Below are positions 14,375 to 42,765 of a stretch of DNA of 64,000 bases, piece after piece. How positions within the stretch are numbered: position 1 is the stretch's first letter; each line of letters begins with the position of its first letter. The notes under the pieces were generated by a model that did not search any database, was not told the DNA's origin, and was given only the letters and a program-made list of their open reading frames with translations. Source of the stretch: a virus; IMG/VR virus record IMGVR_UViG_3300020000_000010, positions 33,601 through 97,600 of that record; one strand, 5' to 3'. The position numbers were made by a program, and so were the translations under genes.

Positions 14375-14926
14375 TCACTCATCTTTCTTAAATCTATCTA
14401 TATTAAATAACTCTTCTTTCATTATAGGTTTATCAAAAACCTCACTATAATCAGGTAACTTAAAATCTAGCTGTAAAATCTCTTCTAAAGCATCTAAATC
14501 CTTTCTAGTAGGATATAGTATCTTTTTAATATTTAAGTACTTCTCGTGATTATAATCCTTATATAATTCTAATAAATACTTCTTATATTCATCTCCAAAT
14601 TGTGTATATTTTCCTTCTACAAAACAGAAAAAGTTATCTGATTGATTATAAGGAACATCAAACCTATATATTTCATATAGATCTTTATATATTTTTTCAA
14701 TAAATTCAATATTATTTATTAGTTCTTTCTCTATTAAAAGATCTCTTACTTCTTTTAATTCTTCTTCTTTAAATTTAAATACTAAATATATACTTCTAGG
14801 ATCAGTAGAAATATAGGTATTATAGTAGTTAAGTGTAAATATTCTAGGATGAAAACCTAACATATCTCTAATAAAAGTAGTAGATTTTGTTAGTTTTCTT
14901 TCCTGATTAATATTTCTATCTCCCAC
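14375..14926 (-). CDS. Hypothetical protein
   Basis: 183-aa ORF in the replication block, with a GKYTQF motif. Confidence 0.65.
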   Translation of the reverse strand: MGDRNINQERKLTKSTTFIRDMLGFHPRIFTLNYYNTYISTDPRSIYLVFKFKEEELKEVRDLLIEKELINNIEFIEKIYKDLYEIYRFDVPYNQSDNFFCFVEGKYTQFGDEYKKYLLELYKDYNHEKYLNIKKILYPTRKDLDALEEILQLDFKLPDYSEVFDKPIMKEELFNIDRFKKDE

Positions 14927-14950
14927 ACATATCCTCCTTCTTTTTAATCA

Positions 14951-15748
14951 TTATTCTGGTAGTTCTATACTCTCTTTTTTATAATATCCTCTATATTTAA
15001 TAGGTTCTGGAACAACAAATCCTTCATAATCTTCTAAAATATATAAAGAATTGTAGTTTTTGTAAAATTCTTGAATTCCTTTATATTCTCCAAATTCTTG
15101 TATATATTCATTAAAGATTAAGGATTCTATAGGAACTCCTAAGTTTTCTTCTAAGAGTTTTTCTACATATTTAATTCCTTTACCTTTAATACCAACTATT
15201 CCGTCAGATTTATCTCCACAAATTACTGATTTCCAGAAGTATACCCTAGCATCTTCTTCTGAAATATTATAAAACTCTTTTTTTCTCCAATTATAAGATA
15301 AACCTTCTAAATTTAAAAGGTCTTTGTCTACACAAATTAGGAAAGAACCTGGAACCTTTTTCCTAGTAATCCTACAAGCATCATCTACCTCAATATCATT
15401 AACTTCTATAGCATTCCAATTATCTATTAAATATTGCTTAGTAAATTCCCAAAATTTTGGCTGTTCCTTACTACGGTTTTGCTTATAGTCTGGATTTATA
15501 GCCAATCTAGATTTAATAGTATTCTTACCTTTTACATAAGCTATATAATATTCTGATTTAGAACTAGTTAGAATTTCATTCATTATTTGATTAGCAGAAT
15601 TCTCTATTTCAAGTTCTGTTTTATCAAAATACTGATATAAACCCTCTTTTTTTATTGGTTGACCAAAGGTATCCAAAACTTTATTTGGATGCATAATTGA
15701 ATAGATAACCGAATCTAAATCTATGACTCCAACCCTCTTACTCTCCAT
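14951..15748 (-). CDS. 5'-3' exonuclease / flap endonuclease (PIN fold)
   Basis: IDLDS, YKQNR, EVDD, DKDL, GDKSDGIVGIKGKG (H3TH). Confidence 0.9.
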   Translation of the reverse strand: MESKRVGVIDLDSVIYSIMHPNKVLDTFGQPIKKEGLYQYFDKTELEIENSANQIMNEILTSSKSEYYIAYVKGKNTIKSRLAINPDYKQNRSKEQPKFWEFTKQYLIDNWNAIEVNDIEVDDACRITRKKVPGSFLICVDKDLLNLEGLSYNWRKKEFYNISEEDARVYFWKSVICGDKSDGIVGIKGKGIKYVEKLLEENLGVPIESLIFNEYIQEFGEYKGIQEFYKNYNSLYILEDYEGFVVPEPIKYRGYYKKESIELPE

Positions 15749-18870: not shown

Positions 18871-19074
18871 TATCTTATTTCAACTAAAAGAACTTCACAT
18901 TCTTCTATTTTATTTTTTATTAAATCACAAATTACAAAAGTTTTATCATTATTTTCTTTCTTCTGAAGTTTTAAGTAAGTATCTTTAATTGCTTTTAAGA
19001 ATACTTTTAAATGATTTTTATAATCGTCTTTTCTTGCTAATATAGGCATTATATTTATTATATAAAAGAGTAGG

Positions 19075-19150
19075 CAGATAGTATAGGAGTCGAACCTATA
19101 TCTTCTAACCCGTGAGATCTAATGCTTTATCCTAATTAAGCTAACTACCC
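19075..19150 (-). tRNA. tRNA-like RNA with a degenerate anticodon arm (best reading CAC), enclosed in an extra 10-bp stem
   Basis: Acceptor GGGTAGT/ACTATCT, D-arm GCTT/AAGC, T-arm ATAGG-TTCGACT-CCTAT. The anticodon stem pairs poorly. Confidence 0.65.
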
Positions 19151-28131: not shown

Positions 28132-28968
28132 TTACGCTGGTTCCCTGAATTTAAGATCTTTTTTTAATTTATAATTACTTATAAACTGAGCTTTAAGATA
28201 TTTTCTTTCTAGATAAATATCTGCGTTTTTATATAAAAATTCGATTAACATTTTACAATTTACAAAATTTATAATATGTATTCGATATAAATTTTTATAT
28301 AAATATAGTCTGTTTTTAATTAAATTATCATCAAAAAATTTTTTAATTTTATCAATAAATAATTTACTTGCAGAAACTATACTTATACAACAATTATACT
28401 CTTTTTTGTTTTTGTTTTTAAAAAAAGAAATACAACCATCTCCGTCTATTACTCCTCTTAAAAAATCCCAAGTTATTGGTATTTTTATATCAAGAGTTTT
28501 AGATTTATTTCTGGTTATTCCTAAATTTATAAGAAAATTAGTAACACTTATAGAAGAAAAACTAAAATTAGACATAAAGTGTCCTTTATATTTAGAATGT
28601 TCTGTTTTATAAATAGGCAAATTACTATTTATAAAAATTTTATATTTTTCAATATGTTCTAAATCTTTGGAATTTAATCCTAAAGTTATTCTATTTCTAT
28701 AAATTCCGCCATCTGTTGCTAATAATCCTAACCAATATTGAGTTTCTCTATCCTCTAAATTAATGAATGGATTATGTTTTACATTTCTTATTTTATCCAT
28801 TCCTCTTCTTCTATTAGAATCGGCTCTTTCTTTTATATTATTCCAAACATTATATTTAATACAAATATCTTTAAGTGTCTCATATGCAACCTTATATTTA
28901 TATTTAATATCCTGAATGTTTACTTTATCATTATAATCTTTAATTAAATCTTCCTCTCTTCCAACCAT
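28132..28968 (-). CDS. Double-motif LAGLIDADG homing endonuclease
   Basis: YWLGLLATDGGI and FLRGVIDGDGCI, plus YLERKY. Lies inside the intron. Confidence 0.93.
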   Translation of the reverse strand: MVGREEDLIKDYNDKVNIQDIKYKYKVAYETLKDICIKYNVWNNIKERADSNRRRGMDKIRNVKHNPFINLEDRETQYWLGLLATDGGIYRNRITLGLNSKDLEHIEKYKIFINSNLPIYKTEHSKYKGHFMSNFSFSSISVTNFLINLGITRNKSKTLDIKIPITWDFLRGVIDGDGCISFFKNKNKKEYNCCISIVSASKLFIDKIKKFFDDNLIKNRLYLYKNLYRIHIINFVNCKMLIEFLYKNADIYLERKYLKAQFISNYKLKKDLKFREPA

Positions 28969-32065: not shown

Positions 32066-34123
32066 TTATCCAAATATTAATTCTTGTTGTTTATTCTCTT
32101 CTTTTTTATTTTCTATATTTCCTTTTTCAATTAAATTGATTATTTTATAACATTCGTTAAAATAAAAATCATATTTAATCTTGTAATTAGCTGGATGTAA
32201 ATCAGTTACCATATTTAAAATAGTAACTTTTTCATTAGCAATCATAGAAATTAGTTGTTCTTTTTCTACTTCTTCTAAATCAAATATAGATATCTGATTA
32301 GAATTATCCTCTTTTTTAGCTATTTTCTTTCGTTTAAAGATATATCCTCCTTCTTCTGATATAAAGTACCTATTTGTTTTTTGAAGTGATTCTATAGAAG
32401 ATTTTCCATATTTATCAAAAATATGTAATTCTGCTTTCATTTCTCCTCCTACTTTTTGAGAAGCACAAAAATCTAATATATCTTCTGAACTTAGGATAGT
32501 TTCTTCAATAGGTATTTCATTAACAAAATATTCTTTTAGGGCCTTATAGATAATAGCAAAATCTGTAGATTTGTTTATTGTTTTTTCTGTTTCAAAGTCT
32601 CCTTTTTCTTTAACTTTTCTAGTAACAATTCCAGATACTCTATCTTTTGTTTCTGAAATAGCATAATAACAGTTTATATCTCTAAAAATTAAGGATTTAT
32701 ATTCTCCTACTTCTAGTTCAAATCCTGTTTTATTTTGCCAATTACCAAGAATATCATAATATAAACCTATTTTTGATTCATTAACTATACATTCTATACC
32801 ATCAGTATTTGAGCTAATAACTTTAATTCCATAGTTTTCTAAATCTTCTATTAGCATTAATAGAAAGAACTGACAATTAATAGTTACCCTATATGCTGCT
32901 AAAGGATCATATAACCAAGAGAATTTAGATAGAAATTTACCAAAAAAGGAATTAATGACAATCTTTAATCCTTCAGATTCTGATACTCTTTTGTTCTTTT
33001 TAGCCTCTAATCTTTTATTTTTGATATTATTTATTACTTCTACAATCCTATTATTTAAATGATTAGGATATATATTATTATTAATAATATTACTAGGGTA
33101 ATAGGATACTACATCACATGTTAAGATCTTATTTAACCTTTCTTTTTCATCTATTGTTTGATTATATATACTGGGTTTAGTTTCTGAGTGTAATCCTCCT
33201 AATCCTACTACATGAGTTGTAGAACCTATTGTGATCTTGCCTAATTCATTAGATTTTCCATCTCCTTCTTTAGAAGATTCTCCTACTTTTATAGTTTTTC
33301 TTGCTATTTCTTTAAGAAAATTATTTAAGCTAGAGCTTTTAAATTTAATATTACCATAAAATAAAATATCAGAAATATGTATATTCTCTCTTATTGTTCT
33401 TTTATCTTTAAAATCTTCTAAGGATAATCCAGATATAATACTATACTCTTTTTCAAGTATTTTATTACATATAGAAGAATTACTTTCATTCATAAGGTTT
33501 AACCCATAGAACTTACTTAAATCCTTCCTGAGAGTTAATATCTCATTAGAATATTCTCTTAATCTGTTTGTTATTAATACATCATTTTCATTATATTCTA
33601 ATATAAGATCTATCTGTTCTTCCTTAATTTCACTATCAAAAGGAATAGGAAGATCTTGTATTTTAGGCCATTTTAGATTAACAGCACATGCTTTTAGTGA
33701 TTTATAAGGTACTTTATCTAAATATAGTACCTTTTGTAGGTTTATTGTATTAAATAAATTGTGATATTTATATTTGCTTAATCTGTTTAATCCTGTTTTT
33801 TGAATTATATCATTTGAAAATAACCATAGATTATAACATAAATCTAGATAGTTATTATATTTTTTGCTATTTATAGTTAACCATGAGATAATTAAATCAT
33901 CATAGTTAGAATTATTATAACCACATAACCAAAGATCTTTAGTATTTAGAATAAAGCTTTCTAAATCTAAATATTCATTCTTCCTTAATGAAATCTCAAA
34001 TACTTTTTTATCTAAGGTTATGTGGTTATAAAAGGTCACACAAAATAAATTCCTATAAACCTCCACATCATAACACCAAAGGTTATTATTTTTTTCTACC
34101 ATTTTTAAAGTTTTTCTTACCAA
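32066..34123 (-). CDS. polB: Family B DNA polymerase
   Basis: Exo I YDVE, Exo II GYNNSNYDD, Exo III YNENDV; polymerase motifs DVVSYYP, KIVINSFFGK and NTDG. Confidence 0.93.
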   Translation of the reverse strand: MVRKTLKMVEKNNNLWCYDVEVYRNLFCVTFYNHITLDKKVFEISLRKNEYLDLESFILNTKDLWLCGYNNSNYDDLIISWLTINSKKYNNYLDLCYNLWLFSNDIIQKTGLNRLSKYKYHNLFNTINLQKVLYLDKVPYKSLKACAVNLKWPKIQDLPIPFDSEIKEEQIDLILEYNENDVLITNRLREYSNEILTLRKDLSKFYGLNLMNESNSSICNKILEKEYSIISGLSLEDFKDKRTIRENIHISDILFYGNIKFKSSSLNNFLKEIARKTIKVGESSKEGDGKSNELGKITIGSTTHVVGLGGLHSETKPSIYNQTIDEKERLNKILTCDVVSYYPSNIINNNIYPNHLNNRIVEVINNIKNKRLEAKKNKRVSESEGLKIVINSFFGKFLSKFSWLYDPLAAYRVTINCQFFLLMLIEDLENYGIKVISSNTDGIECIVNESKIGLYYDILGNWQNKTGFELEVGEYKSLIFRDINCYYAISETKDRVSGIVTRKVKEKGDFETEKTINKSTDFAIIYKALKEYFVNEIPIEETILSSEDILDFCASQKVGGEMKAELHIFDKYGKSSIESLQKTNRYFISEEGGYIFKRKKIAKKEDNSNQISIFDLEEVEKEQLISMIANEKVTILNMVTDLHPANYKIKYDFYFNECYKIINLIEKGNIENKKEENKQQELIFG

Positions 34124-37227: not shown

Positions 37228-37599
37228 TTATAAATATCTTTTTATATAGCTTGCGATATAATTAAAGGATTTTCCTTTATCATTAAGTCTTGATAATTTA
37301 TCATTAATAGTTTGAGATATATCATCTAATCCTCTTAGTAAAGAAGGAAGTGCTTTTGAATCATTATTTTGTAAGTCTTGTGGTAATTCTCTATCATATA
37401 GTATACTTTTATTTATTTTTACAATAGCACAAGCAACTCCTAAACAACAATATTCTTCTTTACTATTATAATTACATAAAAGATAATCTTCTCCTTGTTT
37501 ATATTTTCCGCTTTTAAGAGCTTTTATCCATTTGTTTTTAAACATTTTAGGAAGCCTATAATCTTTTAATTTATTTGTTTTTGGATTTATTATTTTCAT
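37228..37599 (-). CDS. Conserved phage hypothetical protein
   Basis: WIKALKSGKYKQG, CCLGVAC, LND...SF..IA..I. Confidence 0.7.
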   Translation of the reverse strand: MKIINPKTNKLKDYRLPKMFKNKWIKALKSGKYKQGEDYLLCNYNSKEEYCCLGVACAIVKINKSILYDRELPQDLQNNDSKALPSLLRGLDDISQTINDKLSRLNDKGKSFNYIASYIKRYL

Positions 37600-38702
37600 T
37601 TGATTAATATTATTATCCCTTCATATACATGTTGAATATTCTGTAAACTCTTCAACTTAAGTCTATAAGTATAAATACTTTGTTGATCATTATATCCAGA
37701 CCATAATTCATCTCTGTTTTGAGTATGGAATATAACTTGCCCTGCTCTATTAAATACCTCTAACTCATATTCTTTAATACCAAATATAATAGGTAAGAAA
37801 TAATCATTTAAAGCATCTCCATTAGGTGTAAATGCATTAGGTATATAAAGATATATACATTGGCACTCAGAAGGAGCAGATTCAATATTTATAGGTTCTA
37901 TTACAAATACTTTAACTATATTATTACAAGACTCTTTACCATTAGTATAAGTTACTGTATATTGATTATCTCTGGTAGGTGCTACAGTTATATAATAGTT
38001 TGATTTTGAGGGATTTGTGTTCCAAGAATATTTATATCCCGGAATATCTAGTACTAAAGAAATATCATCTATTCCCCAAGTATCAAATCCTACACCATCA
38101 GAATCTTTTTGAATCCATCTAATCTTAGTATGATTAGTTAATGCTTCTTCTGGAATATCTATACAATATTTATTCCAATTGGTTAATATACTATCCATAC
38201 CTCCTTTAGGATCATAGTATTCTATTGTGTTCCAAGAAGTTGTAAAGTATTCTAAGTAAATTCCTTCTGTATTCTTTTCTATACCTTCACAAGGATCATG
38301 AGGATCTCCATTAGCTTTTTGTAATCCATACTTCATTCTAAAGCATAAAGTAGCTTTTGTAGCACCATTCTTTGTTAAATCTAAAGGTTTTGATTCTATG
38401 TATCTAGGATTATCAATACTATTGTTCATAAATAGATAATGTTTCCCTTCAGGACTTAATCCAAAACAAGGATAATTAGAAGTATCAGCTATAGTAGCAT
38501 TAGAGCTAGTTTCTAGTAAAGGATCTATAATACCATTATTAAAATTAATGAATAAAGGTTTTATAGTATCCTTATAAGCAGATAATAACACAGAATCTCC
38601 ACAATATATTGTAATAGAGCTATCTTTTACATGAACTGGACATTGTGTATATCCAGATAGAAAAGATAGCTGTAATAGAAGAATTAATATGTATTTTTTC
38701 AT
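37596..38702 (-). CDS. Secreted protein with a Reelin-like domain and a T9SS type B sorting domain (CHU_C/gliding motility-associated CTD)
   Basis: Signal peptide MKKYILILLLQLSFLSGYTQ; EGIYLEY..W..IPEEALTNHTKIRWIQ..DTWGIDDI; C-terminal YIPNAFTPNGDALNDYF..VFNRAGQVIF..W.G..YTYRL. Confidence 0.85.
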   Translation of the reverse strand: MKKYILILLLQLSFLSGYTQCPVHVKDSSITIYCGDSVLLSAYKDTIKPLFINFNNGIIDPLLETSSNATIADTSNYPCFGLSPEGKHYLFMNNSIDNPRYIESKPLDLTKNGATKATLCFRMKYGLQKANGDPHDPCEGIEKNTEGIYLEYFTTSWNTIEYYDPKGGMDSILTNWNKYCIDIPEEALTNHTKIRWIQKDSDGVGFDTWGIDDISLVLDIPGYKYSWNTNPSKSNYYITVAPTRDNQYTVTYTNGKESCNNIVKVFVIEPINIESAPSECQCIYLYIPNAFTPNGDALNDYFLPIIFGIKEYELEVFNRAGQVIFHTQNRDELWSGYNDQQSIYTYRLKLKSLQNIQHVYEGIIILIK

Positions 38703-41216: not shown

Positions 41217-41411
41217 GATTCCTTAGCATCTTTGATTGCTATAAACATACTTTCTCTTCAAGATATGTTTTATGAGGGCTTAGAACCTCTCTATAGGTTT
41301 AGAACTTTCTTTTATTAACTATAGAGCCTTTTAGAGGGAGGAATATTTCCCCAACTACCCTCCTCCCAATGGTAGCAACTTAAAACCCTTAACTTTAGGC
41401 GTTAAGGAACC
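41217..41411 (-). ncRNA. Putative ~195-nt structured RNA with an H-type pseudoknot
   Basis: Closing stem GGTTCCTTA/TAAGGAATC. A CTACC/GGTAG stem has loop GGGAGGA that pairs with TCCTCCC. Also CTCTATAG/CTATAGAG and further hairpins. Confidence 0.55.
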
Positions 41412-42102
41412 GTAGGTTATTCAAAATATTTATCATACATTATTTCTCCTAATATATAACAAATAATTAATGGAGAAAATAAATATATAATAAATATTTT
41501 AATACTGTTAAGTTCTTCTTTTTCTTTGTCTATACAACTAATAAAACCTAGTCCTATTAGATATAAAATTATTATTTCTATCATAATTCAAGTTTTAATT
41601 GGTTTTTAATAGCTTCTTTAACACTAGGAAATAAATTAATAATTCTATTTCCCATTTTATTCCTATAGTTTATCTCTTGGTTTAAACACTTAATCCAAGT
41701 ATCTTTTGGATAGGCTCCAAAAGTATTTTTATTAGATCTCTTTATAATCCCTATAATATGATATATATGAGGAGTAGAAAGTTCTTCAATCTTTTTTGGT
41801 TGCTTATTTAAAGGCTTCCAATACATTTCTGTTCTTTGTTTTTCATATAGATTCATAAGATTTGGGGTTTTAGTTATTTATAGATTCTTTAAATAAAAAT
41901 TCATAAGTTTTATATCCTATTGTCATAGATGTTACAATTGGAGAAAATAATATACAAAAAAACCATAAAATTAATTCAGGTTCTTTATTAGTATCTTCTT
42001 GATAATGTAATAACATTCTAGAACAGAATCCTATACATATGAAATATACAATAGTTATTAAAAAAGGTATCATTTTTTAAGTTTTAAAAGGTTAATAATT
42101 AA

Positions 42103-42213
42103 AAAGAATATTAAATACTATTTCTAGGAATCGAACCTAAATAGAAACCATATAACATTAAATTACAAGTAATTATTGTAGTTATTATTCTTAAACAATA
42201 TCTAATATTCTTT
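42103..42213 (-). ncRNA. tRNA-like RNA: T-arm inside a 21-bp closing stem
   Basis: 21-bp stem with three G-U pairs on the minus strand, TAGG-TTCGATT-CCTA, and TACAA-7nt-TTGTA. Confidence 0.6.
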
Positions 42214-42217
42214 GTAC

Positions 42218-42370
42218 TAGTTCTAATGAGACTCAAACTCATGCCCTCCTATTTTCTTCAAGTTTTCACAATAGGTTCTTGACTAATCAATCTACTATTG
42301 TAGTTAACGTCTTTTTGTATACTATTTAATGAAGTAGGTGCTCTACCAACAAAAACTGAGCTATAGAACT
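42218..42370 (-). tRNA. tRNA(CAT)-like gene with a ~74-nt insertion in the anticodon loop
   Basis: Acceptor AGTTCTA/TAGAACT, D GCTC/GAGC, CCTAC-TT-CAT, insert, AA-ATAGG, variable AGGGC, T-arm ATGAG-TTTGAGT-CTCAT. Confidence 0.7.
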
Positions 42371-42689
42371 TATGGGTTTACTTTTCATCTTTATTTATTT
42401 TATAACAGAAATATAAAAATCCTATTATAATAATTGTACTAGAAACTATATCTAGTATTTGTTTTGCTAGTAATAATTTTATGAAATTCATTATTTTATG
42501 GTTTTAATTAGTTATAATAATCCTTCTCTTTGCTTTCTTTCATGTTTATCATTAAGAAAATTACCAAAGCTATTTGTATCATCCATACTTTCTGTACCTA
42601 TAAAATCATCCTTTTTTATATTTTTTGATTTTAAAGTTTTGCTTTTATCAGGTTTCTTTTTAATTTTCATTATTTTAAGTTTTAGTTAG

Positions 42690-42765
42690 TACCCCAGGTA
42701 GGATTCAAACCTACATATGTTCAGTTATGCACCTTCTGTTTAGAAAACAGGGCCAATACAAGGGC
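42690..42765 (-). tRNA. Non-canonical tRNA-Arg(TCT) lacking a D-arm
   Basis: Acceptor GCCCTTG/CTGGGGT, anticodon arm CTGT-TTTCTAA-ACAG, ~20-nt variable region, T-arm GTAGG-TTTGAAT-CCTAC. Confidence 0.65.

Follow-up and report, generated by a model that had tools for sequence, protein, structure and literature searches.

A CAU tRNA gene split in its anticodon loop by a 74-nt insert in a soil-derived crAss-like phage

Short inserts in tRNA anticodon loops

Group I self-splicing introns sit in bacterial and phage tRNA anticodon loops, as in the tRNA-Ile(CAU) of Azoarcus and in cyanobacterial tRNA-Leu and tRNA-fMet. The tRNA clusters of phages also contain pseudogenes of tRNAs and scars left by insertions, as is seen near free-standing homing endonucleases like SegB of T4. 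Protein-dependent tRNA splicing is not known to us from bacteria, and a literature search turned up no report of it. Introns of the bulge-helix-bulge type are described for archaeal and eukaryotic tRNAs in the available part of a published account (PMC4090602). The closest described system is that of the Lak megaphages of Prevotella, whose tRNA genes carry introns of 23-141 nt in the anticodon loop that were called 'enigmatic' (Devoto et al. 2019, PMC6784885). According to that report, these introns recur in different cohorts, often with an identical sequence, and some alleles have the intron while others lack it. Short, non-self-splicing inserts in phage tRNA genes have been in print since 2019 with no mechanism proposed, and the literature search yielded no later explanation. 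If even one such insert were shown to be removed, bacteria would have an undescribed tRNA-splicing pathway.

Here, we describe a split tRNA gene that is a lone new example of this published, unexplained kind. It was found in a crAss-like, soil-derived phage genome of 97.6 kb and 27.5% G+C (IMG/VR record IMGVR_UViG_3300020000_000010), which encodes the Crassvirales capsid, portal, terminase and tail-ring proteins and a giant virion RNA polymerase. The window, that is, the whole stretch of DNA that was analysed, comprises 64,000 nt (positions 33,601 to 97,600 of the record), and coordinates below refer to it unless stated otherwise. One ORF in the window (37596-38702, minus strand) combines a Reelin subrepeat-B domain with a C-terminal CHU_C type IX secretion sorting domain and resembles a host-like surface protein. 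The sorting domain points to a probable Bacteroidota host.

We compared the locus with the Lak introns as the available excerpts describe them (PMC6784885). As in the Lak case, the phage is AT-rich and, judging by the sorting domain, probably infects a Bacteroidota host. In both cases the anticodon loop is interrupted directly after the anticodon, on its 3' side. The 74 nt of the insert described here fall within the range of 23-141 nt, and the insert belongs to none of the known intron classes. The Lak introns are shared across cohorts, whereas the split gene comes from one genome and no relative of it was found. The one Lak example examined showed no boundary repeat, whereas the insert described here is flanked by AAATAG, and the split gene, unlike the Lak genes, has additional defects in the form of a 14-nt D-loop and U56. 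What the locus contributes is an example from a crAss-like phage of soil that has a boundary repeat and a clear motive for the tRNA, namely the ATA usage of the phage. As a lone case with further defects, it does not by itself advance the question. It could just as well be an ordinary dead gene.

Anatomy, identity and detection of the split gene

The tRNA-shaped gene, read directly from the sequence, spans 153 nt on the minus strand (42370 to 42218). It lies within a 424-nt non-coding gap and is co-oriented with a long block of minus-strand genes. Its parts and the direct repeat at the insert boundaries are listed here, with nt numbers counted along the gene.

42329..42370, minus strand: 5' part of the tRNA (nt 1-42), with the acceptor 5' strand, U8, the D arm, CCTAC, TT and the anticodon CAT at 42329-42331, as placed by sequence, cloverleaf scan and alignment
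42255..42328, minus strand: 74-nt insert (nt 43-116), with a hairpin at nt 71-103 (42268-42300) and TGAAG at 42256-42260
42322..42327, minus strand: first copy of the direct repeat AAATAG (nt 44-49), near the start of the insert, from the sequence
42249..42254, minus strand: second copy of AAATAG (nt 117-122), at the start of the 3' part, covering loop positions 37-38 and most of the 3' strand of the anticodon stem
42218..42254, minus strand: 3' part of the tRNA (nt 117-153), with AA, ATAGG, AGGGC, the T arm at 42226-42242, the acceptor 3' strand at 42219-42225 and the discriminator at 42218

The preliminary description of this DNA had reported a tRNA(CAT) with perfect acceptor, D and T stems and about 74 nt inserted after the CAT, and we confirmed both points. 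The acceptor stem (AGTTCTA/TAGAACT, with TA next after the 5' strand) forms seven of seven Watson-Crick pairs, the D stem (GCTC/GAGC, enclosing the 14-nt loop AGTTTTTGTTGGTA and followed by A) four of four, and the T arm (ATGAG-TTTGAGT-CTCAT) five of five. The anticodon loop begins with TTCAT, and AA and then ATAGG resume after the 74-nt insert, giving a loop of 81 nt in total compared with the canonical 7 nt. The variable loop is AGGGC, the discriminator is A and CCA is not encoded. Inspection of the sequence also revealed U8, A14, G15/C48, G18G19, A21, U33, G53-C61 and A58. The exception in this otherwise nearly complete set of invariant bases is position 56 in the T loop (TTTGAGT), which is U instead of C. 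Together with the long D-loop and a single mismatch in the anticodon stem (C31.A39; CCTAC/ATAGG, four of five pairs), U56 makes three departures from a normal tRNA, besides the insert, that had not been described before. The split gene is a genuine class I tRNA with the anticodon CAU, and the observation of a genuine tRNA body interrupted in its anticodon loop is confirmed.

The sole ARAGORN call in the window and in the whole genome was a tRNA-Val at 19073-19150; there was no call at the split gene. The intron mode of ARAGORN, a check that had been proposed earlier, reported nothing at 42218-42370 with default settings. After excision of the insert in silico, ARAGORN made no call at any of four junction choices, down to 90% of the default threshold. 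Rfam, including RF00005, gave no match at the locus, neither at gathering thresholds nor at E<=10. Our own cloverleaf scan, in which D-loops of 7-15 nt and anticodon loops of as many as 200 nt were permitted, found exactly one locus in the 97.6-kb genome, the split gene, and one match in 100 first-order Markov genomes, a chance figure that is optimistic because the criteria were chosen after the feature was known. Eight tRNAs from viral contigs with the same acceptor and D stems represented three distinct sequences, two of tRNA-Ile(GAT) and one of tRNA-Val(TAC). Both exons of the split gene align with these three sequences, and its D-loop is about 5-6 nt longer than theirs.

An assembly artefact is unlikely, because two soil samples, each from a different study, contain the same sequence; comparison of one of these with the window showed 0 differences. 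Matching sequence was present in six sequencing runs, all of soil DNA. The four that were compared contained identical fragments, only one of which spans the tRNA, and there was no RNA run with the locus among the six listed.

We then considered which codon the gene would serve. Its acceptor stem is of the Ile/Val type, which makes a tRNA-Ile2 that reads ATA the likeliest identity, with an elongator tRNA-Met as the alternative. Two of the three distinct viral tRNAs with the same acceptor stem are tRNA-Ile. The anticodon CAU would read ATA after lysidine modification. ATA is the commonest Ile codon of the phage (1,034 of 2,042 Ile codons, or 51%; 42 per 1,000 codons), and the genome yielded neither a second CAU tRNA nor a UAU tRNA, so the loss of this CAU tRNA should be costly. 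AGA accounts for 82% of the Arg codons of the phage, and a tRNA-Arg(UCU)-like gene is present at 42690-42765 (minus strand). In this neighbour, which scored 26.1 bits against an Rfam threshold of 29, the anticodon and T arms are good, 5 nt replace the D arm, the variable region has 20 nt and position 56 is U. We argue that the CAU of the split gene and the UCU of the Arg-like gene are anticodons that suit an AT-rich phage. The fit between anticodon and codon usage speaks for a split gene that is, or recently was, a working decoder, and is silent on splicing.

The insert and the origin of the split gene

The insert has a G+C content of 27%, compared with 38% for the exons and 27.5% for the genome. 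It is single-copy in the genome, where its best other match is 16 nt long. A structured insert had been proposed before, and the hairpin drawn at that time (ACAATAG/CTATTGT around TTGA-TTAG-TCAA) is the minimum-energy fold of the insert alone, at -9.1 kcal/mol. This fold was, however, within chance: compared with 500 shuffles it had a z-score of -1.14, and 12.4% of the shuffles folded as well. The whole RNA, constrained to the cloverleaf, reached -27.5 kcal/mol, which is 1.2 kcal/mol above the free minimum (z -1.79; 5.4% of shuffles as good). The pairing of CUUCA with UGAAG, through which the insert was thought to mask the anticodon, does occur in this constrained fold, but 318 of 500 shuffled inserts also paired at least two anticodon bases. 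Because both are within chance in the shuffles, neither the structure nor the anticodon masking is evidence of design.

The AAATAG repeat that flanks the insert is of the kind that DNA insertions usually leave behind. A junction repeat of at least 6 nt was obtained for 1,848 of 200,000 random 74-mers of this genome (about 0.9%). Excising one copy of AAATAG together with the intervening DNA leaves an 8-nt loop. A 7-nt loop results only from removing nt 43-116 or nt 44-117, and exact removal of nt 43-116 produces the textbook loop UUCAUAA. Within the insert, nt 44-67 are an inverted near-copy (20 of 24 positions) of 41945-41968 in the next ORF. This was the best antisense site genome-wide, and 11 of 200 shuffles scored equally. 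We rejected a miniature transposable element, as the insert is single-copy with no terminal inverted repeat visible by eye, and only the 6-nt flanking repeat fits.

Taking these results together, the explanation that we favour, tentatively and with less than even confidence, is that the split gene is a young inactivated copy or insertion scar within a small cluster of irregular tRNA-family genes, and not a spliced RNA. An insertion of 73-74 nt of DNA, arising by target-site or microhomology duplication at AAATAG, would have split the anticodon loop of a genuine CAU tRNA gene, and the RNA made from it would not be repaired afterwards. Since the insert splits the anticodon loop, the gene as encoded cannot read a codon. 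The features that speak for a dead gene are the extra defects, the rejection by ARAGORN even after excision, the genome-like G+C content, the chance-level fold and the AAATAG repeat. The inverted near-copy in the next ORF, the lack of any Rfam match and the failure to find RtcB, an RNA ligase or a splicing endonuclease in the phage are also in its favour, as are the irregular neighbours, namely the Arg(UCU)-like gene that has no D arm and a T-loop-like hairpin in the rod directly after the tRNA. Like the pseudogenes and scars in phage tRNA clusters, the locus has a short junction repeat, an insert of local composition, irregular tRNA-like neighbours and homing-endonuclease genes elsewhere in the phage. 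Unlike them, it has no endonuclease remnant in or beside the insert, and its stems are without decay.

Several observations stand against a dead gene. The acceptor, D and T stems consist entirely of Watson-Crick pairs, 16 in number, and almost none of the invariant bases has been lost, so that inactivation, if it took place, must be recent. In addition, excision restores UUCAUAA, ATA is heavily used, and the same allele occurs in two soil samples. Short inserts at the same site are conserved in the Lak megaphages, according to the available excerpts (PMC6784885). In the preliminary description, a simple pseudogene appeared only as the case that would refute an intron. In view of the three further departures, the genome-like composition of the insert and the direct repeat, we judge it to be at least as likely as an intron.

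The insert could also be read as carrying a type V-A (Cas12a) CRISPR repeat-like unit within a tRNA, acting as an RNA anti-CRISPR or a mini crRNA. Its nt 68-81 read CTAC-AATA-GTAGAT, which is the stem-loop outline of V-A repeats. However, of the 18 positions conserved in the consensus from 120 real arrays with the outline CTAC-N4-GTAGAT, 6 are different in the insert. Among the 40 consensuses listed of these 120, T stood directly before CTAC in all 40 and TT in 39, and the loop began with T. Identity upstream of the outline was at most 12 of 22 positions (mean 6.3), and in none of 185,579 species genomes did the exact 14-mer occur twice in one array. On the conserved-position mismatches and the array search, this barely credible reading was rejected and is close to refuted.

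Splicing, tRNA-framed RNAs and the surroundings of the locus

An intron interpretation of the insert is possible. The insert would then behave like an intron that some undescribed pathway of the host takes out, and the rejoined halves would form a tRNA-Ile2(CAU) or tRNA-Met for the ATA-rich phage. The precursor would form a cloverleaf with its anticodon stem extended by CUUCA/UGAAG, the junctions would lie in single-stranded bulges beside AAAUAG, and a host endonuclease and an RtcB-type ligase would carry out the reaction. We consider this course of events conceivable but somewhat doubtful. It accords with the position of the insert exactly 3' of the anticodon and with a canonical 7-nt loop, including U33 and A37, after excision. 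The perfect stems, the closeness of the constrained fold to the unconstrained minimum, the 51% share of ATA among Ile codons and the Ile identity of two of the three viral tRNAs with the same acceptor stem are in line with it as well. A precedent is provided by the Lak megaphages, with inserts of 23-141 nt that the available excerpts describe as conserved across cohorts (PMC6784885). RtcB, the proposed ligase, was identified in two of five Bacteroidota genomes tested, both of them Bacteroidales, and in the control genome of Bacteroides thetaiotaomicron.

The phage itself was searched for splicing enzymes by six-frame family searches. Neither RtcB nor any RNA ligase was found in the phage genome, so that the search for an RtcB/Rnl ligase suggested in the preliminary description came out negative there. 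The splicing endonuclease family PF01974 had no match in the phage at E<=1. Pfam scans of the phage ORFs, covering all but one of 132 called ORFs of at least 45 aa, agreed with these searches. The splicing endonuclease was over the cut-off in none of the five Bacteroidota genomes, and a single match (E 0.29) was at chance level. Within this scope, the earlier statement that an archaeal-type splicing endonuclease is lacking was borne out.

The fold at the junctions is also at odds with known splicing substrates. In the constrained fold, one junction falls in a 4-nt bulge and the other in a 4x7 internal loop, with a helix of 5 bp between them. As in the bulge-helix-bulge introns of archaeal and eukaryotic tRNAs, to the extent that the available account describes them (PMC4090602), the insert lies next to the anticodon and pairs with it, and the junctions are unpaired beside a short helix. 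Unlike in those introns, the helix has 5 bp instead of 4, and a 4-nt bulge and a 4x7 loop replace the two bulges of 3 nt. The splicing endonuclease on which such introns depend was found neither in the phage nor in the five Bacteroidota genomes tested. A bulge-helix-bulge intron was rejected, as the geometry is not the 3-4-3 motif.

The preliminary description had also considered the insert too small to be an intron of group I or II. Its 74 nt and the absence of any Rfam family at E<=10 agree with this. Like a group I intron, the insert directly follows the CAU of a CAU tRNA, and a U.G wobble can be drawn between U42 and G102. Unlike in group I introns, its 74 nt cannot hold the P3-P9 catalytic core, and the candidate guide lies 60 nt into the insert, not near the 5' end. 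The base before the 3' junction that yields a 7-nt loop is A, not G. On its length, this base and the lack of an Rfam match, a group I intron was rejected.

The removal of the insert by a host route is further weakened by the fact that protein-dependent tRNA splicing in bacteria is neither known to us nor found in the literature search, and by junctions and endonuclease searches that do not fit the known pathway. The 14-nt D-loop, U56 and C31.A39 would persist after splicing, the fold and the anticodon masking are within chance, and no relatives were found. A true protein-spliced intron, in which a Bacteroidota endonuclease would cut both unpaired stretches by the CUUCA/UGAAG helix, each beside AAAUAG, and RtcB would rejoin the tRNA-Ile2, is in our view unlikely. 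If true, it would mean that bacteria possess a tRNA-splicing route exploited by phages.

We also examined 16 related crAss-like records. An Rfam tRNA match was present in four of them, and the anticodon domain was irregular in all four. The four share a conserved Leu-type outer frame that recurs at at least 134 viral loci and surrounds hypervariable centres. These Leu-frame RNAs have total lengths of 61-169 nt and occur in up to six copies within 2.4 kb. For 111 of the 145 listed copies with a placeable acceptor partner, ARAGORN made no tRNA call. The family shows that RNAs with a tRNA frame but no decoding function are nothing unusual among these phages.

The split gene might accordingly be viewed as a non-decoding tRNA look-alike that works unspliced, whose frame would give processing, stability or the binding of a protein that handles tRNAs and whose centre would be a decoy, a sponge or a hairpin scaffold. 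It resembles the Leu-frame family in having an intact outer tRNA frame and a centre unable to read codons, and in belonging to the same phage group. Departures at the elbow, such as U56 and the long D-loop, would matter less than in a decoding tRNA. However, it is not a member of the family by sequence, as the Leu-frame T arm and acceptor sequence had no match in the window with up to three mismatches. Unlike the Leu-frame RNAs, the split gene keeps the anticodon stem and both halves of the normal loop, and its insert is not detectably structured. Its anticodon also matches the codon needs of the phage, a fit for which a look-alike has no reason. Weighing these points, we regard a working look-alike as rather improbable, and retain the young inactivated copy or insertion scar as our tentative explanation.

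Relatives of the locus itself were searched for in several ways. With 50,697 phage records as targets, neither a 3-kb query nor the 153 nt of the gene produced a BLAST match. Exact patterns based on T-arm, exon and acceptor-frame sequence occurred in no viral contig and no metagenome contig, and a 19-mer pattern had four matches, all within an unrelated protein gene. Protein anchors adjoining the locus led to no relatives, the best non-self DNA polymerase being 50% identical. Three complete relatives, with capsid identities of 67-68%, were not syntenic at the locus (4 weak matches from 28 ORFs). They contained no similar DNA, and a relaxed cloverleaf scan of them gave chance-level matches only.

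The surroundings of the split gene contain further irregular elements. Directly after the tRNA, a 117-nt rod (42100-42216, minus strand) has a 21-bp basal stem and a z-score of -3.37, with 0 of 200 shuffles as good. TTCGATT, a perfect T-loop sequence, is part of its inner hairpin. One could take the basal stem for an acceptor stem (ATTGTTT/AAATAGT), but neither a D arm nor an anticodon arm can be drawn. Two copies of a 28-nt direct repeat, with 21 of 28 positions identical, are separated by 250 nt on the minus strand. The copy at 42443-42470 lies upstream of the tRNA, and the copy at 42193-42220 begins at its last 3 bases. The 17-mer core of this repeat is mismatch-free at those two sites only in the window. 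The repeat could be a promoter-like element or a trace of a duplicated tRNA unit. A promoter and terminator scan returned 36 sites, with 34.1 expected. The non-coding region at 41225-41415 (minus strand), which is relatively rich in G+C, has a weak match to the twister-P3 ribozyme (score 20.6 bits, threshold 39.9, E 0.66), and its fold is within chance (z -0.95).

Elsewhere in the window, the tRNA-Val called by ARAGORN (19073-19150, minus strand) has the anticodon CAC and a weak anticodon stem of 2 Watson-Crick and 3 G.U pairs with 1 mismatch. It would read GTG, the rarest Val codon of the phage (1.8 per 1,000). A free-standing homing-endonuclease gene of the LAGLIDADG type is located at 28132-28968, inside the region of an amide-ligase cassette. 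Another, of the GIY-YIG/NUMOD1 type, lies among the tail-ring genes outside the window, at 14779-15516 of the genome.
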